A DNA stretch of 63,812 nucleotides, the filler included, from Folioceros fuciformis (Eukaryota), in assembly GCA_049999805.1 (NCBI GenBank). It is 4 parts of 4 records of this genome, joined end to end, with 100 filler letters (N's around TTAATTAATTAA, not from the genome) between each part and the next. Parts side by side here need not be neighbours in the genome. Positions count along the whole stretch, not along the records: positions 29,273 to 52,699 come from JBNGIO010005798.1; 3 more parts are not named here. One strand, 5' to 3'. Within the stretch, counting starts at the first letter, position 1, and each line of letters starts with the position of its first letter. Shown here piece by piece: positions 5,715 to 52,084 of this stretch. The position numbers and the translations under genes are program-made. Below the pieces are notes generated by a model, which did not search any database, was not told where the DNA came from, and was given only the letters and a program-made list of their open reading frames with translations.

Positions 5715-8700
5715 ATGGCGCCCTCCTGTGGGAAGAGAAGCATCACTCCTGGAATTTCCATCTTGGATGCCCAGTTAATGGTGTGCGGGCAGCCCATACT
5801 GTCCAACTTGCCCACCAATGTGCGCCTCACTCCTGATCCAGGATTGGGAGTGTTGCATGGCGCGTTCTTGGGAGTATCAGCCTCAGAGCCCAGCAGCCGT
5901 CATGTTCTCCCCATCGGGAACCTTGAGTTTGTTTCTCAACTCGTCACGCCCTGGTCTTCCTGACTAACGTATGTTTATGTTTTGCACCATTTCTTGCTTC
6001 TGCATCAGCTCTTGTGTACTTATGTTTACCTGGCTGTTCTGATCAGCCTTGTGTTCTCGCGGTGGAATGGGGCACAGGGGCCGACGTTTCATGTGTTGTT
6101 TCCGATTCAAACTGTGGTGGATGACTCAGAGGATGGGCAATGCGGGACGGCATGTGCCTCAGGAGACTCAATTTATGCTTTTGGAGAGCAAGACGGAGTG
6201 CTCTTTGAGTGAAGGGGAGGAGCTGGAGCAGGATGATCAGACAGTGTACACTGTTTTCTTGCCTCTTCTGGATGGGCCGTTCAGGGCTTCACTTCAGGGG
6301 ACTGATTTGGATGAACTGCAGTTGTGTTTGGAAAGCGGTGTGTAATTTCAAGTGCTTGGGTGATGTTCGTAGTGCATGTGCTTTAAATGCTAGATCTTTC
6401 CCATTCGATTTTCCCAGACCCGTGTTATGCTCCACCTCATAAAGGGAGAAGACTGATTTGAGTGTCCCAGGTGATCCCGTGGTGATGACATCTCAATCAA
6501 GCCACGCCATGTATATTGGAAGTGGAGCAGATCCCTTTGAAGTTGTGTCGGATGCAGTACGGTGAGCTTGCTGAAGAGAATTTTAACCCCTATCCTTGCG
6601 GTATTGTTATGTTCTGTGGACTTGTTCTGTTCAGCAGAACAAGTAGCAGTAGAATCATGACCCTGGAAAATATTAGTGCAGAGCTGTTGAAGCACACTCA
6701 TGTTCGTTTGCTCATCGGGAGAAGAAGAAGGTGAGAGCTGGAATGTGTCCGTCTCTTTCAATAAACATCCGACTTTCAGATTGTGGATGGAGCCCGTGAT
6801 GAAAAAACTTGTACAGATGCCTGGCTTGCTGGATTGCTTTGGATGGTGTACTTGGGATGCTTTCTACACAGATGTCACAGCAGATGCTGTAAATGAAGGC
6901 CTGAAAAGGTACTTGGGCTCCCTGAATCTGCTGGTCACCTCTGCTGCTTCTTGGAATGTTGACCTCTAAATTGGAAAGCGAAGGGTTTTTAGTTAAATGG
7001 CTGTTGGAACCATTGACAAGCTTGTTCGAGGGGGGCACTCCGGCACGATTTTTAATCATCGATGACGGGTGGCAATCTCTCGACTCAGATGATAAAGGTG
7101 GGAATGCAACAGTCTCTGTTGGCACACAGTAAGTAAGACATCTCAAACCCCTTGTTCTATGAAAAAGTCACTAACATAATTGCTTCGTTTTCATCTACCC
7201 CCTGCATTGAACTTTGCACAGATACGCAAGCAGATTGAGTAGCATCAAAGCGAATCACAAGTTTGAAAGGGATGACAAGGAAAATGGTGCAAGCGTGGGT
7301 CTGCAGCATTTAGTCCAGGCATCAAAGGCGAATTTTCAGTTGAAGTAGGTGATTAGTCCAGACATGTTGAATGCTTGGGAGCTAAATGGCAGTATGTCTG
7401 TTTGCAGTTTTTGACGGGTTTTTGAATGGGCTGTATATCACGCTGATCAGGTACATTTACGTTTGGCATGCTCTTGCTGGGTACTGGGGAGGAGTGCAAC
7501 CAAATGCTGAAATGGATCAATACAAGCCTGTGGTGACGTATCCAGTGCATTCCCCTGGAATATTAGCCAACCAGCCTGATATGGCCACAGACAGCCTCAC
7601 CGTGAATGGGTTGGGCCTGGTCAACACAGAGAAGTTGTACGAATTTTTCAATGATCTGCATAGCTACTTGGCAAGCGCGGGCGTAGATGGTGTGAAGGTG
7701 GATGCACAGTCAATCATTGAAACCCTCGGAGGTGGGTGTGGTGGCCGTGTCCAGTTGGTGAAGCAGTACATACAAGCACTTGAAGCATCTGTAGCTCAAA
7801 ACTTTCCGGATAATGGTTGCATAGCATGCATGAGTCACAGCTCTGATGGAATTTACAGGTTAGCAGTATTTCCATGCCTTGGAACAAGTGAATGTATGCT
7901 GTTTTGCATGTCTCACACTGAAAGTGTTTTCTGTGAGCAGTACCAAGCAAATAGCTGTTGTCCGTGCCTCGGACGACTTCTATCCCCGGGATCCTGCGTC
8001 GCACACCATCCACATTGCTTCCGTGACGTACAACAGTTTATTCCTAGGCGAATTTATGCAGCCTGACTGGGATATGTTTCAGGTCAGGTCAAGTCATGTC
8101 TCTTTTCCCTGACACCATTCTGTCATGTATTACCTGCATCACCAGTAGTTTGACTAGTGTGTAATGGGCTCTGTTGGTGCAGAGCCTGCATCCGGCCGCA
8201 TCTTATCACGCAGCTGCACGTGCTGTTGGAGGGTGTGCGATCTATGTCAGGTGGACGTTGTTTTGCCCGCCAAGATATTGGCAACAGAAATGCTTTTGCT
8301 ATGAGATCCATGTTCGTGTGCTGCTTGGGCTAACAGGAGTGAGGGTGGTGTTGCAGTGATAGGCCAGGACAGCATGATTTTGAGTTGCTGAGGAAGCTTG
8401 TGCTTCCTGACGGGACTGTCCTGCGAGCAAAACTCCCTGGGCGACCAACCTGTGACAGCCTGTTCGTAGACCCAGCTAGAGACGGGACCAGGTCAGTTGC
8501 CTGCACAGTCACTGGAAGCTGTTCCTCATATCTGGGTTGCGGTGATCGAGAAGTTAGAAATTCTTGTAACTGGATCCTCATCGTTTTGTTTCGCTGTGCA
8601 GCCTGTTGAAGATCTGGAACTTGAACAAGTTCACGGGTGTTTTGGGAGTGTTCAACTGCCAAGGCGCTGGCTGGTGTAAAGATGGCAAGATCAACAGAAT

Positions 8701-9446
8701 ACACGACACCGCTCCAGCCAGCGTCACCGGAGGCATCCGGGGACTAGACGTGCATTTGTTAGCCGATGTGGCTGGAACGAAGTGGAATGGGGAATGTGTG
8801 GTTTTCTCTCACCAAGCAGGTTCTCATCTGTCCGCTTTTCCACTAGCTCTTTCTTCCCTTGGTGCACTCTATATCATTTCTGAGTGTGTGCGAGGGACAT
8901 GTGGGCAGGGGAAGTATGGCGACTTCCGAAGGCCGAGTCACGACCTGTGACCTTGAAGGTTTTGGAGTATGAAGTGTTCACTGTGACACCCGTAGAGGTG
9001 CGGCAGGCTGAGGCGTTGTTTAGTCAAGTTCAGTTCAGTCCAGTCCTGCACGTCTGCACACGTCCATATCCTCCCGACGTGCAGCGGAATGGAAATAGCA
9101 ACAGCCTGAGCAGGTGTATCCGCATGTGCAGGAAGTGGCGGCAGGAGTATGGTTCGCTCCCATCGGTTTGCTGGACATGTTGAACTCCGGAGCTGCAGTT
9201 GATGCACTGAGCCACGATGCCACCGAACCCGTAGTTCCAGGCGGGCAAGGGGACGGGACCTGCAGAGTAACGATGAAGCTCCGCGGGTGCGGAAAGTTTG
9301 GAGCTTATTCGTCTCGCAGGCCGAAAGCTGTGCTGCCTCTCGCAGTAGGCGCCGGGATGTGTTACCGCGAGGCGGATGGTCTAGTCACCTTCTCCCTCCC
9401 GGTCCCCGAAGAAGGGCAGCTGTGGGACGTGACTATTCATCTTTGA
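5715..9446 (+). CDS. Raffinose synthase / seed imbibition protein family (alkaline alpha-galactosidase, GH36), multi-exon
   Basis: Motifs [77 protein letters not shown] and [22 protein letters not shown] occur in exons joined by GT-AG introns. Start taken as ATG 5715; an in-frame upstream ATG exists at 5481. Confidence 0.95.
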
Positions 9447-10555
9447 AAAGAAAGAATGTCTCCTCCTTCTCCTTATGCCTTGTTCGCGAAGAAACGCAAG
9501 GAATCATGCACTGGCCGCGGGTGCGTCGGGACTGCCATAGCCGTGCCGTGAACACGTAAACCATGCAGATGATTCGTGAGCTCGAGGAAGCAGCATACGA
9601 AGGGGCCGGAGAGCTTCCCGGATCCGGCATGTGCCAGGTGAGACAAGGCGGTGTCCTGCACTGCCGTGAGGTGGCCATGGATCACTGCGCACGGGGGCTG
9701 CGACTGCAGAGAACGCGTCTCCACGTGCCCCGGAGCCGTCGCCCTGTCTGAACGAGACATGCTGCATATCAATGTGTACCGTGGCCGTTACTGATGCCTC
9801 GAGTGCCACGTCGTCAGAACCACCGGATGGCCGGAGAACCGGACGGACGAAAGTCGCCAGTAGCCAAACCCGGATCACTACCGCACGATATTTTATCTAT
9901 GGCGCATGGTTATCCACCCGGTGACTGGACGAAGCCTGCAAAAGAAATATTGTCCATATATTCATGACCGCATGGTTGGGACCAGGCGGGCGGTTTTGGG
10001 TGGCTGGTGCACGGTTGAGGTGGGATGGACGGAGGTGGCTGTACTCCGTGATGACGTGGCCGTATTTGCCAGCACTCCAAGCGTCATACATATAGCATGG
10101 AAGCCTCGCGAACGACACAGCATGTACAGTACGTACTTGTACATACAAACGTATGAGCGTGGTGGCGCAATACACGTTACGTATATGATATTGTATAGGC
10201 GTTGAAGTCGAAGTTGTCACCAACCCGAGTCAATGACCAGAGTGTCCGGGTCAGTGGCGGTTGCACCGAGTCTCAATCCCGTCAATGTGCTCGGCCCTTT
10301 TATCTACTTCTTCTCCGCCCATTTGCATCGAGCGGGCTTGACCCACTGATGCATCGTCGTTTGCTCACCTTGTCTTCTTTCTCAAGTTGCACGCGCTGCC
10401 GACGATCCTGCCGTTGCGGTCCGGGCGAGGCCAATCTGGGCCTTGTGAGGGCAAGCGGAAGAGCAACTCTCGCTCTCGGGTGGGTAGCTGTGCTTTCTTC
10501 ATGCGCACACTGCAGTGCTCATTTCGCTGAGGTAAGCGCCACTCCTTCAGCCTTT

Positions 10556-37210: not shown

Positions 37211-37294
37211 GTCAGGATGGCCGAGTGGTCTAAGGCGCCAGACTCAAGTTCTGGTCTTCGAAAGGGGGCGTGGGTTCAAATCCCACTTCTGACA
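37211..37294 (+). tRNA. tRNA-Leu(CAA)
   Basis: GTCAGGATGGCCGAGTGGTCTAAGGCGCCAGACT-CAA-GTTCTGG, long variable arm, GGTTCAAATCCC T-loop and acceptor stem GTCAGGA/TTCTGAC. A T-run terminator follows shortly downstream. Confidence 0.97.
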
Positions 37295-41300: not shown

Positions 41301-43014
41301 GCATGGTAAACGACCTACTATACAGACCTGCAGGCCGGCAGATATTTACACACATTCATACATATGCAAAAAGCCTCACGAATTTGCATCCGCCAGCAGA
41401 AGAGTCCCTCGCACAACCAACAATTTCTGCAGGGTGTTCTTGCAGCAGAAGTTTGCGACTGAGCAACTCTAGTTTCGTCCCGTAGGAAGAAGATCCCGTC
41501 AATGCGACCAGTTGTTGGCAACAGCAGACTTCGCAGCCCAAACGAGTTCGCCAGCGCAGAGTACTCCGGAGTCCCTTCCAGACACCAAGGCGAAGAATGA
41601 GAGTACGAGCGTATACGAGGCAAATATGTAGGAGCTCAATGCACGACACCAGCTCCGTGTCGTACAGACGCGAAGTGCCCATGGGAGCCTGCATGTACTG
41701 GCAGCAGTACAATAGTTTCCCAAGAGACTGAAAGCCCAACCGATGGAGCAAGGATGTCGTCATCCCATCCCTGACAAATCATATACATACTGTAGGAACC
41801 CCAACGGCCGTTAACACCAACTTGCCAGGTTACAAGGGTTTTCTAGTTAAGTACTTTTCAAATTAGGCTCTATTAGGGCTTCACTTTTAGGGTTAGGGGT
41901 TCCGATTTGTGCGTTCTTTGTTAGTGTTAGCGAGTCGCGAAGATAGGCTCCGCCGAATTACTGTACATTCAGCAGCCGACCGACCGCGATCGATTCTCCG
42001 AGGACAGATTGGGATTGCATCTCCACATGAAGCCGACCACGGGAGCAAGACAAAGCCTGATTGCGAACCTCCAGGCCTTAGCGAGGCTGATTATTTATTT
42101 CCACATCTACTAAAAGACAAGCCTGATTTGCGAGCATGCGAGCCTTAGAGAGGAAGGTTCGAGCACATAATACAAATGGTTGAGTCATTTTTCAGTGACC
42201 TAGGATGTGATAATTTGAATGGTTGGTCGTATGGCTTAAACCTTAGCATGTAGCATAGATCCAAACCTTGTAGTCCTGCAAGGCCTATATATCTTATCCA
42301 TGCAGTTAGAAGCCAAGGTTAGAAGCCAAGGTCACTGAAGCTTTGCTCGGCAACAGCTAAGTATGACCTTGTAAGAAACATGATGTTGTTCAATAAGCTT
42401 CAAAGTGTATGCAATGTATCCACATCTTAAACCCAAAGGCCAAAAGATATCACACAAAATATCACATGATGAGTCCGATATTTAATATATTTATAGCTAA
42501 GTTTCATAATAATACATAATATTATATATAATGCAGTAGATAGTTTTTGAAAATGATATTTGTAAGAGAGAGTACTTCTTTTTGCCTTTAGCGCAAACAG
42601 GGTTGGGTTGTTCCTCCGATCTTTGGAGTAGATGGGACTTTCCATCTCTTTTTCAATCATAGAAAACTTCATATATAATCATCATATAATCTAATCTAGA
42701 AAAATATTAAAATGTTCATGGAAGAAAATGGAAAATAGATACAAAGGCATAGACTTTGAAGTTCTATATTCCATAATTGGACATTTTTTAGAAAGCTCTG
42801 GAGTAGGGAACTTGAGGGGAGAGTTACAGCATGTATGTATGTATGTATGTGTATATATACAAGCCATCATGGCTTGCCAATTGCCTCTTATGAGGACTCA
42901 CACACCCATTAACCTTGGCTTATGTATGAGGTGAGAGGGAGACCTTGGATCACGTAGAGTGCTAGCATCAGAGCACTCATAAAGTTATAATTCACACTCA
43001 TGGAGTTATAAACA

Positions 43015-43198
43015 TGGGCTTGGTGTGGCTACAATCACTCACCCAATATAAAAAGTTCAGCTCGAGATCTTGGGCTTGGTGTGGCTACAATCACTCACCC
43101 AATATAAAAAGTTCAGCTCGAGATCTTGTCATAGCACTGTTAGCTCATCATCAAGTTATCAGCAATACACGCTCATCATCAAGTTATCAGCAATACAC
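43015..43198. repeat. Two exact tandem duplications: 56 bp x2 (43015-43126) and 28 bp x2 (43143-43198)
   Basis: Seen directly. Confidence 0.9.
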
Positions 43199-43506
43199 AC
43201 ACGAATCAATGCATCGTATTAGAACAATTAGTAGGAATGTCCCAAGCACACCAAGCAAGTGGACATCCTAGCTTGCTTGCTGTATACACTTAGGGCGAGC
43301 TACTGGTGGGGCAGCCCCTCTATCCCCCCTTCATCAGCTCCAAAAGGGACATCATTGGCATGGATTTCTGGATCCATGGCACCTAAGCAGCAATGAAAAC
43401 CAAAAACCAGAAACCAAGTCCTAACATGTTCATGTTATTTGCTAATACATTTTCAAGTGGACAGATCTCAGTGGTAAGCGAAACAATCACTTGGTCAGAA
43501 AATCCA

Positions 43507-43655
43507 ACACCCAAAAACTAAGATAGGAGCAAAGCAATCACCTGGTCAGCACACCCAAAAACTAAGATAGAGCATCTCCTCCAAAAACTAAGATAGGAGC
43601 AAAGCAATCACCTGGTCAGCACACCCAAAAACTAAGATAGGAGCATCTCCTCCAA
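43507..43655. repeat. Higher-order tandem repeat built on CCAAAAACTAAGATAGGAGCA (4 cores, two alternating spacers)
   Basis: Seen directly; spacers AAGCAATCACCTGGTCAGCACAC and TCTCCT alternate. Confidence 0.85.
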
Positions 43656-43967
43656 CCAAAAGGTTAGCTGTAGAATAGATTTCAAAAAGAGTATGTGGGC
43701 AAACTTACTGAGCCATGTAGCAGTAGCCGGTCTTCCTAAAGGCACCAGGGTAACAAGGAGTCAACCAAGGAGAGGGCTAAGGGATCAACAGGAGGGGGAG
43801 GGGATGCAAGCTAAGAGTGAAGGACCACCAAACTGTTCTAGGTATAAGAAGAGGAGAAGTTAAGACAAGAACCAAGCGTTGCACAAGGAGTGCATAATGG
43901 GACACAGTTCTTCTTGATGGTTAGAACTTGGTGGCAAAGCTGCAACATGGTGGTAGAGTACGTTAAC

Positions 43968-44100
43968 AACTCCTTAGCATCTAAGGAGCCGTTAATTCCA
44001 TCATTGCGCAACCTTAAAAGATTAAAGCCCTAACCTCCTTAGCATCTAAAGGAGCCGTTAATTCCATCATTGAGCACCCTTAAAAAATTGAAGCCCTAAC
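43968..44100. repeat. ~66-bp tandem duplication, each unit starting with a CTCCTTAG-CAT-CTAAGGAG hairpin
   Basis: Two slightly diverged copies seen directly. Confidence 0.85.
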
Positions 44101-44262
44101 CCACTAGCTGGCAATCCGGTGTAAGCGATGCTTTTATCACATACATACATACCAAAGTGTATGTATGTATGTACTCAGAGTCGCGACCTTGGAGCAAGGA
44201 CCCTGGCTCCAGCTCTCGCCGTTCCACAAATGTCATACAAGGCTCCGAGATCTGTATTTCGC

Positions 44263-44285
44263 TAGGGTTTCCCTTGCTAGGGTTT
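44263..44285 (+). promoter_or_regulatory. Two telo-boxes (TAGGGTTT) upstream of NOL6
   Basis: GCTAGGGTTT occurs twice within 100 nt of the ATG. Telo-boxes are established promoter/5'UTR elements of plant ribosome-biogenesis genes. Confidence 0.7.
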
Positions 44286-44360
44286 AAGGCGGGGTTGTAG
44301 ACCCCTTGGCTATTGCCTGTAGCGTTTGGAGCTGCCGCAGCCAGCTCGCTGTGCGAAGGA

Positions 44361-47300
44361 ATGGCGGAGTTCTCCCTGGGTGAGGGGAAAGTCGGGGAAC
44401 TTCTCAGTGAAGTCAGGGTGGATTACACCAAGCTGAAGCCTCTGAACGATGCTGTCGCGGCGCTGCGCGAAGTTCTGCTCAGTTTGCCTGAGCAGCAGGT
44501 ATTTGCCGATGCATTTGGGTATCGGCTTGATCTTTAAAAAGCGTCTTGCAGTTCTGCTAGGTTTTTGTGCCCATTTAAGCCGGCGTGCTCGTAGCAATCC
44601 GTTGGGGTTGTGGTGATTTGCACGTGACTATGAGCACACATATTGACTGTGAACTCTGTATGCCTCTCTTGACTGGCCTGCGGGTCTTGACTTGGTGGCT
44701 TGGATTTCCCCACATTGTCTTGTGATATGGTTGGGATGTCGGGATTGTGTATGTGCGTGTGTGTGTGTTGCCCTGAGGTGGCTTATTCGTCTGGACTAGC
44801 TCTGCCGGTGTGGAAGTCCTGTTCTTGACACTCTGGTATAGTAGTCTAGGTTCTTTAGGCTCTGATTGATTCCGATGCCGTCATACTTCCGCCAGGTTTC
44901 GGCCTCTCTGGCTCAGCAGTTTGTCAAGGACCTGGGGGTGGCAGAAAACAAAGCAAGATTTCAGTTCGCCAAGCCCGAAAGCGTGAACGTTATTGGCAGC
45001 TATGCACTGAAGACAGTCACGAAACCTAACCTGACTGCAGATTTGGCCGTACGAATCCCCAAAGTACTTCTTCATTCCTCCCTGTTTTTGTTTTGTGTTC
45101 ATGCAGATACAGTAGGCTGGGTCCTTTCGTTCTTCTACTGACTTTGAGTGTAACAGTGCTGCTTCGGGGAGAAAGACTATTTGAACCATCGCTATCATGC
45201 AAAGCGAGCCCTTTATCTCACGGTCATCCAGCGACGACTGGAAGCCTGTCAGTTTGTTGCGAGGATTGAGTGCTCGTCTTTGTGTGGCGACTTTAGGAAA
45301 CCAGTTTTGTTAGTGCACTTTGGTGGGTATCCCCAGTCCCTCTGGCTATATTGTACATTTTTGGTGTCTTGCTTTGGGATTTTCTTAATTTTAACATGTC
45401 TTTCTAGTATCCGAAGCAGGTGCTTCTCAAGGGATTGTTGTCAGGGTAGTCCCCACTATTGCAAGCAACGTATTTCTACCGTCCAAGTTGGCACTCGGTC
45501 GGAACAATGTGAGAGATGCGAAATCAGATCGTAAGTGCCTTTCTGCTTTCGAAGGTGGCCCTGCAGTCCTCAACTGCAATAGTGGCCCTCTGTTCATCGG
45601 GCGGGAGACCTCAGCCTGTGGCTTTTTCTTTCTTCTTCTTGACCAATGGTATATGTGATGTATGTTGGCAGGACAGAAGGCCAGGTTCAACCAACCCCTC
45701 ATTATAGTGCGAGTATTCTAGAGGATGCCTTTATCGAAGAACATCAGGATATTCTCAAAGACCTGCTCTCCGGTGCAGATGCTATCCGGGATTTAGTGTG
45801 TTTGCTGAAGGTCTTTGCCTCACGACTTGTCACTCTCTATCTGCCTGATCTCTGTTTTCTCGGACCTAATTCTTGTTCTTCATATATTCTAGGTGTGGTC
45901 AAGGCAAAGAGAATTTCATCTTTCTTATGACGGGGTGTCCAGCTACCTAATGACTTTGCTTGTCGCCCACCTGACTACAACTGCTGGTGGCAAGCGAGTC
46001 AAAAGTCATTTATCGGCATTGCAACTGTTTCGTATTGTGATGGATTCCATTGGTATGACCTTACACCTGGCTGTCCTTTAGTGTACAGTGTTTGGTTTTG
46101 CATTTGTTAACAACTGTTAGGTGATGACAGCCACTTCTGATATTCTGGGGAAGGGTGTTTTCTTGCAATTTGAAGAAGGTCTCCCGGTACCTAATGAGGT
46201 ATTGCTGAGTCGTGTGTTATTCTGTTTCATCTAATGAGGCTTTTGTCCTGTGGCTAACGCATCCTCTTTGTCAGAAACGACGGTTGATGGAGCAATCTTT
46301 TGAGGTTATTATTTGTGATCCCTCTGGAGTATACAACTTTGGGCACAGAGTATCAAAAAGTGCACTGGCTGAGGTGAGCTTTGTTGTATTGACCTTGATG
46401 GATCTCAGCTCCACTGTCTTACCTTTCCTTTGTGTCTCATTTATGTGTTCTCTTCCTTCACAGTTGAAGGAAGCTGCAGCACAGACTCTTGCCATTATGA
46501 GCTCTAGCAGGGACAATGGATTTCATGCAGTGTTTATGACACGCGTCGATTTTGCTGCGAAGTATGATTACCACATAAGGTTGGTGCTGATGTGCTGTTC
46601 ATCTGCTTTTCGTCTTCATAAGTCAAGACATGTTTAAATTTGACGGCGATGGACTAGAGTCACTTTTATGCCGTAACCTAATGGTATACAAAGCGCTGAA
46701 AGTCGCCAAAACTTATGGGTTTAGCTCCTCCTGGTTGTGGGGTTTTATCTCCTGACCTTGGTGTTTATCCGAACACGAATTTGTTGATCACGCCGCAACA
46801 TATCACAAGTGTGTGGGATTCTTAGGCTGTGTCTATGGCGATGGACTAGAGTCACTTGTGTGCCTGGTGTGGTGGCACATAGAGCGCTGAAAATCGCCAA
46901 CACTGTTCAGCTCAGAGATTTGTAGTGTAAAGCTAGTTTATTGCGTTTGCACTGTTTGAAGGCTGTATATTCTGTTATTCCACTCCACGAACCTCTCCTC
47001 CTGAGCTTGCTTAGTAAGAGTCATCTACAAGCTTCTTCACGTAGATTCAACTACAGTCTCAATATGTGGTCCTTGTTTCTCAAGGTCTGGAGAGTCTTGG
47101 TACGTGGTGTCTGTGGCAGTGGACTCGAGTCACTCGTGTGCCCGGTGCGGTCGCAGATAGATAGCTAGAAACCGACCTAACTGGTTATGTAGTAGAGGTG
47201 GAGGGCTTTGGCTCTGTTATTCTGCAGTAAATAGAATTCTATGTGCGTGATCAGATATTATCGTACAGCAGTTGGAAAACCCTAAAACTCGCCGTTGCAC

Positions 47301-50300
47301 ATGAATTGGTGGAATTCCCTTGAGTGGTGTCCTCGGTGGAAGTTTAGAGTTCTGTGTTGAGTCCTGTTGTTTGAATTTTGGTCCCCTTAGGTCGATATAC
47401 TGTGTGTGCGGGCTGTTCCGTATGGAGTGCTTGGGGGGGTGGGTTGTAATTATTGGCAGTTGATTCAATTTCTCGTGTCTCAGGTGGGATGCAGCAAGAA
47501 ATGCTGGATCTAACCCCTCTACTTCGCACTGTCTGGATGAAGAATCCTGGAGAATTCTGGAGCGTCGTTTTGAGTCTGTGCTGTACAGAGCATTACAGGA
47601 TAGAGTTAAGTCTGTCCGGGTGTTGCGAAGAACACTACCTAGTGGATGGGACATGAAAAAGGTCAGTGGTGAGCTTGTATGATTGCTGTAGGCCATCTTG
47701 TGTACATTTGTGTGCAGTCTTGGGCTCATGACAGGTACTTTTTAATCAGGGCCTCTCTCATGTCGACAAGGGTCCACTTTTTGCTGGAGTGATTCTGAGG
47801 GATCTTTCAACTGCTCTACGCATGGCAACGGTTGGGCCAAGTGCGGAGAGGAGTGATGAGGTAATGTTCTTGTGCCTTTGTATGCCATATACTCACCAGT
47901 ATATGGATGTGTTTTGATGATGCTTCTTCACCTTTTAATTTCTTAGTATTTACAGGCTGAAGAGTTTAGGGAATTTTGGGGTAGCAAAGCTGAACTCCGT
48001 CGGTGGCCTGATGGAACCATCACTGAAACTGCAGGTTTGAGCTTAATCGTGCTGTCTCTTAGTTCATAAGCTTGTTTTCGGTAGTTTGCATTGGGCAGGA
48101 CCACAATGAGGAAATATGAATCAACCATAGTGCGGTGTACCTGTCGAGGTTCTGTATGATGTGGTGGAAAACTCGTTGTCTGAGTGGTCTCATGTCTTGT
48201 TTCAGAAAGTTGTGTGCAATTAGGGTCTGGAAATCCGTTTTGACATTGAACCTGCGTGATAACAGCTTGGGAATGCCAACCCTGGCAGAGGCATCTAGTG
48301 ATCAGAAAGATAGTTGAGCATGTGATTACCCGCCATTTAGGAGCAGCTTTGAATGATGTACATGTTGTTGCCGGACAGCTGGATTTCTCTTTGTTGGAGT
48401 CAACAAAAGGTATCAGTTACGTGGTGCTCATTTTCCTTGCAGCGTCATTATGATCTTGCAAATCCTGATGAAGTTTACTGTTTGATAAAAGCAGATTGTA
48501 TGTCTTCAGCTTCGAAGTTGGTTGCGGCCTCAAAGGACTTGTCTGACCGATTGAGGAACTTGGAACAGGTGCCTCTGAAAGTTGTTGCGGTGCACCTTTT
48601 AAGTCCAGGTACGGGATGCGCCTCCTTGAAATGGGTATGGCTGCTAGCGTGGATGTCTGCCTGCTAAAGAATCAGGTATAATCTGACATCAGAACTTTCC
48701 AGCGTTCAGGCAAGCTGCTGTGTTTCCTCCTGAAACACATCCTCTAGCGGACGAAACAGAATCACAAACACCTCCCAAATTCTTACCCCGTTGCTTGGAT
48801 CCTTTGGAGGTTGCAATTGAGGTATGTCAGGTCATGGTTGTTTGCCTGGCATCTGATTTCAATTACTAGAATCTGGAGTGTGGAGTGAACAATGGGTTTG
48901 CCCTGTAGCTTGAAGGATCCGGTAGTTGGCCGGCTGACTTGGGTGCTGTACAAAAGATCAAAATGGTATTTCTCTTAAAGATAGCAGAAAGGTATGATAA
49001 TGTGCTGAGGCTCTCCCTTCGAGCACTTTGGCTGATCCTGAATTTGTGGTCTAACGGTTTTCTTCACCTTGCAGCTTGCAGAGAAGTTGGAGGGTGGCAT
49101 ACACCTTGATCAACAATGCGGTCGATGTCCTTATGCATGGCTTTGCCTTTCGCCTAAGCATCTGTTACGAGAAGGATCCCAGTATACTGGGTAGAACGGT
49201 GGCATTTGGTACAGCATCAGAGGACTACAGTGTGGACTACACCATGAAGCCGGGTGCGTTTGGAGCAGTCCGCCCGAGTGAAGATCTGCTTCTGAAAAGG
49301 TATCACGCGAAGCTGCTGGACAGTCTTCAGGGTTTACACCCAGTCTTTGGGCCCACTGTAAGGTCAGTTTCTACTCTGAGACGTTTTCCTTCGTTGCCTA
49401 TGCTTGGTTCTCCTGTTCCTGGACGCACTTGCACCCACTGGCTCAACCATTCTTTCTTGCATCAGATTAGCGAAACGTTGGGTGGCTGCGCACTTCCTGG
49501 GAACTGCTGTTTGTGATGAAGCAGTGGAGTTGTTAGTTGCTCACCTATTCACGAATCCTTTTCCATTCTCTCCTCCGTCCTCCCGTATCACTGGATTTTT
49601 AAGGTAATCATGGTTAGAGGTGCTTCTGGTCTGTCCCAGGCGGTGTTTGTAGTTTCTTCAGCAGGACATGTCTAGGGGAACATTACTGTTGAACACTCGT
49701 GGAAATTATGTTGATGGAGTCATGTTGCAATGATGAGAACACAGGTAATGTCGATCACGGTCTTCGGACCCGTGAAATGAGGCAAGATTACTGATAGCGG
49801 TTAGCTGAGCAACTCGGTCTTGAGGTGATGGGTTCCTGCTAGATTTGATCTTGTAGTTTGTCCTTGTTGACAAAGGAATCGTGAATGACGGATGCAGGTT
49901 TTTGAACTTACTTGCAACACATGATTGGGATCTTGTGCCCATAGTCGTGGACGTCAACAAAGACTTGTCAGTCAATGACACTGAGAGGATCATGGTACCT
50001 TCCAAGTGCGCTGGACCTGATGTTATTTTTTCAATGAACATGTGATGAAAAAGTCGTTGATTTCCTAGGATGTATGCACTGAGCAGGAGCACTTCGATGC
50101 TTTAAGGTCGGGGGAGAAGCAAGGTGAGCTGAAGGGACCACCGATGTTCATCTGTACCCCATATGATAGAGTCTCGCGAACGTGGACATTTTGTTCTCCT
50201 TCCGCCCGTGTAAGTGTGCCGTAGATGCCGTAGAACTTGTATATTTTCATGTGAACCCTCTAGGCACATTGACAAAACCTAACAGTCTGAAGGGTTTGTG

Positions 50301-51255
50301 TACAGGAATTGAAAAAAATTGTTTCCTATGCGCGAGCCGCGGCCGTACTTCTTGTACGGCTCATTCACAAAGAAGAAGACGTATGGGCGGTAGGGTACTG
50401 AATCATGGTGTTGTGGTTTTCAGGCATGATATTCTTCCTGGATCCTGACTTCATTGTTGTCTACTCTGTGTAGTCTTTGTTCCGAACACCTCTCAATTGC
50501 TATGATGCAGTAATACATCTGCATCACGAGAGTTTGCCTCACCCTGGTCGTGTCCTCTTCAAAAACGATGTCTGGATGCAAGGTGTGTAGAGTGATCCTA
50601 ATTTTTGTTTTGCGATTGTGCTGAGGAGACTCTGACGACTTGCAATCTCGGTTGATGCAGGAACTGTGTGCGAGGACCCGAGGCCTGAGCTTATTGGGCA
50701 CTTGTCAAAATCCGTTGTAAAGCTCGGAGCAAACAGGTTGCGAAGTCAACTACTTGTTGGGTTTGACCCGATATCGTGCTTTGTCAGAGATCTGAAGGTA
50801 CCATTGTGCTAAGGTTCTTTCCGTATGTTTTTCACTGTGGCAAGGCTTTTATTTTGAATTGAATTGGTATGAATTCAGGTCAAGTTTGCGAACATTACCG
50901 TTTTCTATGATCTGTTGGGTGGGAGCGATGTTGTGTGCTTGACTATGGAAAACCTCACGGTAAGTTTGACCTCATCGCTTGACTGTCACTTTTGCTGAAT
51001 CAACTTGAATTTGGGGGGTTATTATGACGCTCGTTTTTTGGAACCCTTGATCGGGTTACGCAGCTGAAGCGTTTGAAGGACTCGGAGAGGAACACGCTTT
51101 CGAGGAACGGCGCGGTGGGGGGCATCACCCGGAAATTTAAAGAAGACGAAACGCCAGAGTTAGACGTGCGAAGTGTAGTGTCAGCCATCTGTGAAGTGGG
51201 ACAAGGCCTTGTGAAAAGTGTCCAGCTCGTAGAAGATGCTCGAAAGGTCTTTTGA
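44361..51255 (+). CDS. NOL6: Nucleolar protein 6 (Nrap/Utp22), many exons
   Basis: VIGSYALKTVTKPNLTADLAVRIPK, EKDYLNHRYHAKRALYL, PTPHYSASILED, FWGSKAELRRWPDGTITE, LEGSGSWP, VDVLMHGFAFRL, PTVRLAKRWV and LVGFDP in consistent GT-AG exons. Confidence 0.93.
46645..46713 (+). ncRNA. Candidate intronic guide-RNA hairpin copy 1 (H/ACA-like; antisense to 25S rRNA UGACUCUAGUCC)
   Basis: GGCGAT/GTCGCC lower stem, GGACTAGAGTCA antisense element, and upper stem CTTTTATGCCG/TGGTATACAAAG. Confidence 0.55.
46836..46905 (+). ncRNA. Candidate intronic guide-RNA hairpin copy 2 with ACA box
   Basis: TGGCGAT/ATCGCCA lower stem, identical 12-nt antisense element, upper stem GTGTGCC/GGCACAT, and ACA (46900-46902) 14 nt after the start of the 3' pocket strand. 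Confidence 0.65.
47114..47180 (+). ncRNA. Degenerate third copy of the same hairpin
   Basis: TGGCAGTGGACTCGAGTCACTCGTGTGCCCGGTGCGGTCGCAGATAGA aligns to copy 2, with substitutions that break the stems. Confidence 0.45.
48099..48189 (+). ncRNA. Candidate intronic box C/D snoRNA 1
   Basis: Perfect 6-bp terminal stem GACCAC/GTGGTC closing box C-like ATGAGGA and box D CTGA, with internal C'-like ATGATGT. Lies in intron 48035-48265. Confidence 0.7.
49724..49813 (+). ncRNA. Candidate intronic box C/D snoRNA 2
   Basis: Terminal stem GTTGC/GCAAC, perfect box C ATGATGA and box D CTGA; D' TCGA and C' ATGAGG flank a cUUCGg-capped hairpin. Lies in intron 49604-49897. Confidence 0.8.
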
Positions 51256-51793
51256 TGTTTTCTATTGGTTCCGATTTTTTGGTACCTGCATTAGTTACGA
51301 CGTGTGCGTCTCTTTTGGTGACGACATCGAGAATATAGGCACTGTACCTCCTGATGGATGGCGGATAGAGGAGGGTGAAGGTGGGCTGTGACAACTGTAG
51401 AGTCCCCGGGCCTGACGTACGCGATTATGATAACGTGACGGTCAACTCTGCTGTGTACAATTCGATAATGTTGCGGATGGGATGTTCCCACGTGCCTGTG
51501 ACGTGGATGAGAACTTGTACTATGATGTACATCCGAGTGCTTTATCACGGACGTATCTTCGATTTGACAGTGCTCCTCGTGGATTCCCAATCTGAGTGGT
51601 TTTGTAGTATCCTATGCTTTCAGAACACCAATCCAAAAGAAATCTGGTTCTTCCAAATCGTTCCAAGACCATCCTATCCTCTCTGCGCATGATAGATTTG
51701 TTTCCAGAGCATTCCAAGAGCATTCATACAGGTTTATCCAAGAGCGTTCTTGCACCAGTATCCTTTCATTTTGTTTTTTTTTCCCTCCTTACA

Positions 51794-51868
51794 CTTATCG
51801 AATCAAGTTCGTCCTTAGGCTTATGAAATCAAGTTCGTCCTCAGGCTTATCAAATCAAGTTCCTCCTT
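51794..51868. repeat. 26-bp tandem repeat, about 3 copies (ATCAAGTTCGTCCTYAGGCTTATSAA)
   Basis: Seen directly. Confidence 0.8.
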
Positions 51869-52084
51869 CGGTATCAATCCACTTGCAAGATGATGATCTC
51901 TTCCCTACAAATCATTTTTAGAGTGCCTTTGGAATTGAATATGCATATTCTTCCCAACCTGTGATAAAATATGATCATATATGTGGCTGAACTCGGGGGT
52001 ACGCCAAGTTTCTATTAGCTGACTATAGTACAGCGCCCAGGTTCAGGAATGAACCTAAAGCAGAAACCTTCAACTAAAACCTAA

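Follow-up and report, generated by a model that had tools for sequence, protein, structure and literature searches.

What does a short hairpin encode when it stands three times in a single intron of the gene for a pre-ribosome factor and carries a strand antisense to large-subunit (LSU) rRNA? The question is raised by a 63,812-nucleotide (nt) stretch of the Folioceros fuciformis genome (GenBank assembly GCA_049999805.1), composed of four parts joined end to end and here called the window, in which three related units of about 63 nt lie within the gene for Nrap/NOL6. We lean toward reading these units as an intron-encoded, tandemly duplicated box C/D-like guide RNA of noncanonical build, directed at the uridine that is 2'-O-methylated (Um) as Um2421 in yeast and as Um2422 in Arabidopsis. 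A first-pass annotation of the window had regarded them as candidate single-hairpin H/ACA-like guides. Its broader proposal of an rRNA-antisense, guide-type RNA near yeast positions 2416 to 2421 is strengthened by a homologue that sits in a cluster of canonical C/D-like genes, and the box C/D reading fits the conserved features better than the H/ACA reading does.

The three units and their host intron

A repeat search of the window recovered a 63-nt hairpin family in three tandem copies on the plus strand, at positions 46645 to 46707 (unit 1, 63 nt), 46837 to 46898 (unit 2, 62 nt), and 47115 to 47177 (unit 3), and additionally paired copies 2 and 3 as a 77-nt family. A covariance model of the intact forms, run over the whole window, scored units 1, 2, and 3 at 82.7, 87.0, and 31.1 bits, respectively, and found no further match, so that the three related units first noticed in this intron are borne out by two kinds of search, with starts at 46645, 46837, and 47115. 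Units 1 and 2 are 78% identical and, as sequence and alignment agree with the first-pass annotation in showing, have in common the paired ends GGCGAT...RTCGCC, the 12-mer GGACTAGAGTCA, and the strand GCTGAAA. With at most one mismatch allowed, the 12-mer occurs three times in the window, versus 0.45 occurrences expected, and none of 100 shuffled sequences reached three. The spacers between the copies are no more similar to one another than shuffled sequence.

Units 1 and 2 are both predicted to fold into a lower and an upper stem separated by a large internal loop, with energies of -20.8 kcal/mol (z, -2.65) for unit 1 and -25.7 kcal/mol (z, -1.92) for unit 2; for each unit, 5 of 200 shuffles folded as well. 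For unit 3, the predicted fold is no better than that of shuffled sequence (z, +0.29). This unit carries an A-to-C change in the guide (one mismatch), its CTGA has become CTAGA, and both stems are broken; it is a decayed copy and probably a pseudogene. The description of a triplicated hairpin thus holds for the first two copies, while the third is degenerate.

The host intron (positions 46578 to 47481, plus strand, GT..AG) is 904 nt long and holds all three units. A spliced contig of 3,643 nt from run X3, found among the contigs on positions 45500 to 48500, joins 46577 to 47482 and spans nine GT..AG introns in all; the same splice joints are absent from the DNA runs X1 and X2. Run X3 was taken as RNA derived on the basis of a guessed label ("RNA?") and of this spliced contig across nine introns. 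It delimits the upstream exon at 46462 to 46577 and the downstream exon at 47482 to 47659. Reading frames of the flanking exons match Pfam Nrap domain 1 above the cut-off (E value, 3.8e-12), with weaker matches, below the Pfam cut-offs, to Nrap_D2 (E value, 2.2e-6, on the upstream frame 46209 to 46634), Nrap_D3 (E value, 0.013, at the downstream exon), and Nrap_D4. Because the spliced contig and the matches to Nrap domains 1 to 4 agree, the identification of a 904-nt NOL6 intron is correct, and the units lie on the sense strand of the host gene.

Two X3 contigs are wholly internal to the intron (46654 to 47014 and 47052 to 47253) and cover unit 1 in part as well as units 2 and 3. Since such contigs show neither RNA ends nor strand nor level, they are a weak hint of persisting intron RNA. 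The gaps between X3 contigs (46578 to 46653, 47015 to 47051, and 47254 to 47481) and bins of zero depth were not taken as evidence, and contig depth was not read as copy number or expression level. In DNA run X1, a 53-nt contig over unit 2 (46842 to 46887) differs from the window at two positions, and the unitigs of this run break at units 2 and 3, which suggests that the sample sequenced has an allelic form of the unit or a further, near-identical copy.

A homologous unit in metagenome contigs

A search pattern made of the guide and the GCTGAAA strand retrieved six metagenome contigs, each of which carries a 63-nt unit. The first 20 and the last 16 nt of these units are as in the window forms (with one change, at R), the upper stem is paired, and the loop is different; overall, the metagenome units are 81 to 84% identical to units 1 and 2. 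The six loci fall into about three haplotypes or close species, with 90 to 93% identity over kilobases. The GC content of the four loci longer than 10 kb is 31 to 32%, versus 49% in the window, which indicates that these loci derive from another organism. When positions 43000 to 52000 of the window were compared with the 55 kb of loci by blastn, all alignments fell on the units; a tblastn search with window frames found no Nrap in the metagenome loci, and the 50-nt flanks of the units gave no alignment between window and loci. As only the unit aligns, and neither the flanks nor the host gene do, the unit is a discrete module found in two unrelated genomic contexts.

Four distinct intact forms could be compared. 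Among them, 17 columns of the alignment are variable, with 16 of these in the 28 middle columns that form the loop and the upper stem and a single one in the 36 outer columns (hypergeometric P, 8e-7). The clustering of variation in the loop and upper stem marks the unit as a discrete RNA gene on which selection acts. Pairing is kept through the changes in 91.7% of upper-stem cells and in 100% of lower-stem cells, the latter including one change from U-G to U-A.

In one of the metagenome contigs (L007), the unit (9261 to 9323) lies between two genes with canonical boxes, on the same strand and some 230 to 280 nt away. The first, at about 8958 to 9045 (plus strand), reads GTGATGA...CTGA...CTGA and has a 6-bp terminal stem; the second, at about 9601 to 9700 (plus strand), has the same series of boxes, a 10-bp terminal stem, and an internal hairpin after the D' box. 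The guides of these two genes look complementary to 18S rRNA sites; scans of viral contigs with the guide stretches returned 26 loci in one case and at least 118 in the other, and rRNA-like flanks were found at none of the 26 loci, the set that was inspected. The cluster seems to be bounded by splice sites, with a GT donor close to 8821 and an AG acceptor close to 9783, and a tandem repeat of about 120 nt (8324 to 8564; copies 82% identical) lies upstream of it. The three metagenome haplotypes are about 90% alike overall, which is too high to set small nucleolar RNA (snoRNA) islands apart convincingly.

A unit placed between canonical C/D-like genes corresponds to the polycistronic snoRNA layout of plants. 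Clusters of snoRNA genes are known from rice and have reportedly been found in Chlamydomonas as well. Polycistronic organization is described as standard in plants (PMC5122169), and in Arabidopsis, snoR79a to snoR79c lie in an intron of At1g31860 (PMC2875012). Like plant and green-algal clusters, the window units are tandem isoforms within one intron of a protein-coding gene, and the metagenome cluster, like those of plants, is mixed with other C/D genes. Unlike plant clusters, the units have Nrap/NOL6 as their host, one isoform is already a pseudogene, and the isoforms are noncanonical.

Complementarity to LSU rRNA and the predicted target

An Rfam scan found no rRNA in the window, and the comparison was made with eukaryotic LSU fragments in contigs filed as viral rather than with the 25S rRNA of F. 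fuciformis. A 16-nt motif scan of viral contigs gave three loci, and two of these, L001 and L002, are eukaryotic LSU rRNA fragments (Rfam scores, 80 and 116 bits), with the motif at the start of the Rfam matches, near model position 2420. The third, L003, is a chance occurrence and not rRNA. The LSU fragments, at 14 to 271 of L001 and 1695 to 2056 of L002, may be captured or misassembled host rRNA, or the contigs may be misclassified.

The 12-mer GGACTAGAGTCA is an exact 12-nt complement of the L002 fragment, extended by one G-U pair between the following G and the unit's U, and it matches L001 at 11 of 12 positions, which upholds the antisense relationship to plant 25S rRNA proposed in the first-pass annotation. 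The element stands at 46651 to 46662 in unit 1, where its duplex with L002 (guide alone) has a predicted energy of -22.2 kcal/mol, and at 46843 to 46854 in unit 2, as located by motif scan and duplex. A 12-nt guide is of usual length, since Arabidopsis guide-target pairings are mostly 10 to 14 bp (PMC8053127).

The printed Rfam alignment has UAG at model positions 2429 to 2431, which places the 12-nt complement at about 2423 to 2434 of model RF02543. Within the motif, one register only gives U at yeast positions 2416, 2417, and 2421, so that the model numbering equals the yeast numbering plus 6. Pseudouridine (Psi) 2416 with snR11, Um2417 with snR66, and Um2421 with snR78 are tabulated for yeast in PMC5699541, in accord with the modifications that the first-pass annotation had named. 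Because the guide ends just before a D'-like CUNN, the fifth-nucleotide rule of box C/D guides picks the U of yeast Um2421 and Arabidopsis Um2422; read from the alignments, the fifth guide nucleotide upstream of CUNN indeed pairs with the equivalent of yeast U2421.

This U is methylated in yeast (guide snR78), human (U52), Dictyostelium, and Arabidopsis (AtsnoR37) (PMC8817022, PMC8583080, PMC8053127), the equivalents of yeast Um2421 being Arabidopsis Um2422 (2411 in the old numbering) and human Um3904/3925. A nucleomorph homologue, GtNM-R6, has a D' guide listed for the equivalent site (PMC6461891). The main text of PMC8351944 contains no passage on the Um2421/2422-equivalent site, and a 10-nt stretch of the guide, searched in full-text literature, brought up no snoRNA paper among the matches listed, as judged by title and abstract.

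Box C/D features and proposed mechanism

The C box of box C/D snoRNAs has the consensus RUGAUGA. At the corresponding place, the units have GCGAUGG (46646 to 46652 in unit 1), which agrees at five of seven positions, keeps the GAUG core, overlaps the terminal stem, and is invariant in the four intact forms. Units 1 and 2 and all six metagenome loci have the D box CTGA without change, 8 nt before the 3' end (46696 to 46699 in unit 1 and 46887 to 46890 in unit 2); unit 3 has lost it. The putative D' box is degenerate, with CTTT in unit 1 (46663 to 46666), CTTG in unit 2, and CTCG in unit 3 and the metagenome form, CT alone being invariant. The upper stem-loop of unit 1 spans 46664 to 46691 in fold and alignment, with arms at 46664 to 46672 and 46683 to 46691. 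Box C/D antisense elements are at least 9 to 10 nt long with the fifth nucleotide on the target, and both properties are found here, next to a D' box that amounts to CUNN.

The box C/D reading fits the conserved features better because CUGA is invariant and because the fifth nucleotide of the guide picks a U known to be methylated. The decay of unit 3 supports it too, the guide match, CUGA, and the stems being exactly what was lost. The first-pass annotation had judged that a C/D reading fits worse than an H/ACA one. On the invariant CUGA and the fifth-nucleotide target, that judgment is reversed; its objection that the would-be C box is noncanonical and overlaps the terminal stem stands.

If the units are guides of this type, an RNA of about 63 nt would be trimmed from the spliced or unspliced Nrap/NOL6 intron. 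The terminal stem, GGCGAU/RUCGCC, would set the C-like GCGAUGG beside the D box CUGA, and the 12- to 13-nt antisense element that follows the C-like box would pair with domain V of 25S rRNA and end before the D'-like CUNN. An internal hairpin would take the place of a recognizable C'/D' motif. The mature RNA would then direct 2'-O-methylation as a box C/D-like RNA, by means of one active guide, and its target would be the U equivalent to yeast Um2421, a role filled elsewhere by snR78, U52/SNORD52, and snoR37. From these features, we infer a stable RNA of about 63 nt, a fibrillarin-type ribonucleoprotein (RNP) assembled on a noncanonical C/D core, and methylation of that U.

The known guides for this site offer the closest comparison. 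snoR37 (RF00333), SNORD52 (U52; RF00276), and snR78 (RF01176) are grouped in Rfam clan CL00063 (PMC3511168). Like them, the unit is predicted to address the same target nucleotide by a D'-type guide just downstream of the C-side box, and like them it has a D box CUGA and lies in a snoRNA cluster or an intron. Divergent C'/D' motifs, including that of snR78, are active in yeast (PMC3116282), and the C'/D' region of the unit is likewise divergent. Unlike these guides, the unit is only about 63 nt long and lacks a canonical C box, a recognizable C'/D' motif, a second guide, and an Rfam match. AtsnoR37, for its part, also guides Cm2366 (2355 in the old numbering; PMC8583080).

Departures from a canonical box C/D snoRNA

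Several observations weigh against a box C/D guide. A canonical C box is absent from the unit, which offers GCGAUGG only, and a scan of the intron allowing up to one degenerate position found no RTGATGA. In the predicted terminal stem of 6 bp, GGCGAU/RUCGCC, Watson-Crick pairs take up the GA of the C-like box. To draw a standard kink-turn, with its stem I, 3-nt bulge, and tandem G-A pairs, one would have to open this stem or loop out AARUC, which is on the wrong strand. As the sequence reads, GAUG opposite CUGA could form a G-A/A-G/U-U/G-C core only with the terminal stem partly opened. Short helices can be drawn outside the unit (UUU/AAA, GUGU/ACAC, and UUCU/AGAG past a 3- to 4-nt 5' bulge), all too short to be set apart from chance.

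To the same side belong the D' box, which is CUNN and no more, together with a C' box that is not recognizable. No second guide for Cm2366 was found upstream of the D box in the register examined, where the forms differ and have A, G, or C at the fifth nucleotide. Covariation is not significant: across the four sequences, both partners have changed in 1 of 15 pairs, a number that 253 of 500 shuffles reached. The hairpin had been called covarying at the outset; the stems do stay paired through changes, and the term overstates what these counts hold.

Lastly, the unit matches no Rfam snoRNA family, the snoR37/SNORD52/snR78 clan included, and at the gathering threshold the whole window yields a tRNA only. 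The Rfam scan that the first-pass annotation had proposed as a check was negative for snoRNA families even at an E value of 10 or less: 1,001 nt gave one chance match to mir-286 (E value, 6.1), and two 88-nt stretches gave, respectively, two chance CRISPR-repeat matches (minus strand; E values, 3.4 and 6) and none. This negative carries little weight, since Rfam gave no match either on the 55 kb of metagenome loci (L004 to L009), despite two canonical-looking C/D genes in each.

Alternative explanations

The departures above can be turned into a reading of their own, namely, a functional, nucleolar-type RNA that pairs with 25S rRNA without being a standard methylation guide. Such an RNA could be a single-hairpin RNP, a folding chaperone, or a competitor of modification, with proteins other than or beyond the C/D core. 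Conservation, cluster context, and rRNA complementarity are accommodated by it as well as by a C/D guide. It further takes up the missing canonical C, D', and C' boxes, the terminal stem that occludes the would-be kink-turn, and the absence of an Rfam family, and the conserved AGCGCUGAAARUCGCC is longer than a D box and a stem need. Against this, a C/D guide is the simplest explanation of CUGA, of the GAUG opposite it, and of the exact fifth-nucleotide fit on a universally methylated U, and no alternative protein-binding motif was identified. We consider a functional RNA of this other kind unlikely, although it is the likeliest of the rivals.

We would give about as little credence to a bolder form of the guide reading, in which the unit belongs to an undescribed minimal class of the plant lineage. 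Members of this class would be single hairpins of about 63 nt with an H/ACA-like loop, a D box, and neither a canonical C box nor an ACA; a nonstandard RNP would form on a GAUG/CUGA core held in a Watson-Crick stem, and the RNA would act near the peptidyl-transferase center, either as the sole Um2422 guide or by regulating the Psi/Um cluster there.

Very improbable, in our assessment, is the view that the units are nonfunctional sequence, either decaying relics of a canonical snoRNA, retroposed or duplicated, or a small mobile repeat. Copy 3 is clearly decaying and the C box is imperfect; the X1 contig breaks and the 53-nt variant could mean another near-identical copy or allele, and snoRNA genes do move and duplicate within genomes (PMC3511168). 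Against this, the first 20 and last 16 positions of the same noncanonical form are retained, with one change at R, in an organism whose base composition differs strongly, the variation being in the middle (P, 8e-7), and the upper stem has stayed paired through its changes (95% of cells paired). There are no target-site duplications and no further copies in the 119 kb searched. A miniature inverted-repeat transposable element was rejected for the same lack of target-site duplications at any copy.

The single-hairpin H/ACA-like guide of the first-pass annotation, directed at the U equivalent to yeast Psi2416, is the least probable of the readings weighed here. Single-hairpin H/ACA-like RNAs with an AGA box are known from trypanosomatids and Euglena. 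Like box H/ACA guides such as yeast snR11, the unit forms a hairpin whose lower and upper stems enclose a large internal loop, and its 5' loop strand is complementary to rRNA just 3' of UU, beside the U that is pseudouridylated in yeast (Psi2416; PMC5699541). One nucleotide past the stem, each intact form has a triplet of the ANA type, which is AAA, ACA, and AGA in the three forms. The triplet thus differs in each, and an ACA occurs in one of three, following unit 2 (46900 to 46902), the corresponding letters being AAAACT in unit 1 and TAGAGT or TAGAGC in the metagenome form; the ACA first noted after copy 2 is present and is not conserved. No ANANNA hinge box follows any copy and no second hairpin is conserved between the flanks of window and loci, so the original remark that neither an H box nor a partner hairpin is visible was accurate.

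The pairing proposed 5' of the target fares no better. GCUGAA pairs with UUGAGC at 5 of 6 positions with a central mismatch, and it adjoins the lower stem, at the bottom of the loop rather than by the upper stem, leaving 4 to 5 nt unpaired under the latter. Box H/ACA guides have 14 to 16 nt from pocket to ACA, versus 17 to 18 nt here, counted on the alignment between the pocket top and the triplet. One-sided pairing over 12 bp is atypical of this class, and the invariant CUGA is left without a role. Membership in the H/ACA class was rejected on these grounds: an ACA in one of three forms, no H box or partner hairpin, and weak, misplaced 3' pairing. A reading on the minus strand was dismissed as well, because its ATGATGT lies in the loop of the homologue, units 1 and 2 lack it, and both the host gene and the cluster neighbors run on the plus strand.

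Other features of the window

Another intron of the same Nrap gene, about 250 nt long, contains a canonical box C/D snoRNA candidate at 49724 to 49813 (plus strand). The terminal stem of this candidate pairs GTTGC with GCAAC over 5 bp, its C and D boxes read ATGATGA and CTGA, and it has an internal hairpin; Rfam made no call for it at the gathering threshold. A tRNA-Leu (CAA) gene of 84 nt lies at 37211 to 37294 (plus strand; Rfam, 59.2 bits; also ARAGORN). The window contains 364 N's.

Implications

The interest of the box C/D-like reading is moderate and rests mainly on the missing C box and the hairpin-with-pocket shape of the unit; if the units are merely ordinary divergent C/D snoRNAs, the gain is one of routine annotation. 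Nrap/NOL6, itself a pre-ribosome factor, would join the host genes of snoRNAs, with a second, canonical C/D candidate in another of its introns. The two intact copies and the one dead copy form a small natural series in which function could be tested. Should the RNA be made and guide methylation, one of the most widely conserved rRNA ribose methylations would be set by a guide that standard tools cannot recognize. This would bear on the completeness of snoRNA catalogues in nonmodel plants and on the minimal needs of a C/D RNP, in particular on whether a GAUG/CUGA core buried in a helix can recruit Snu13 and fibrillarin.

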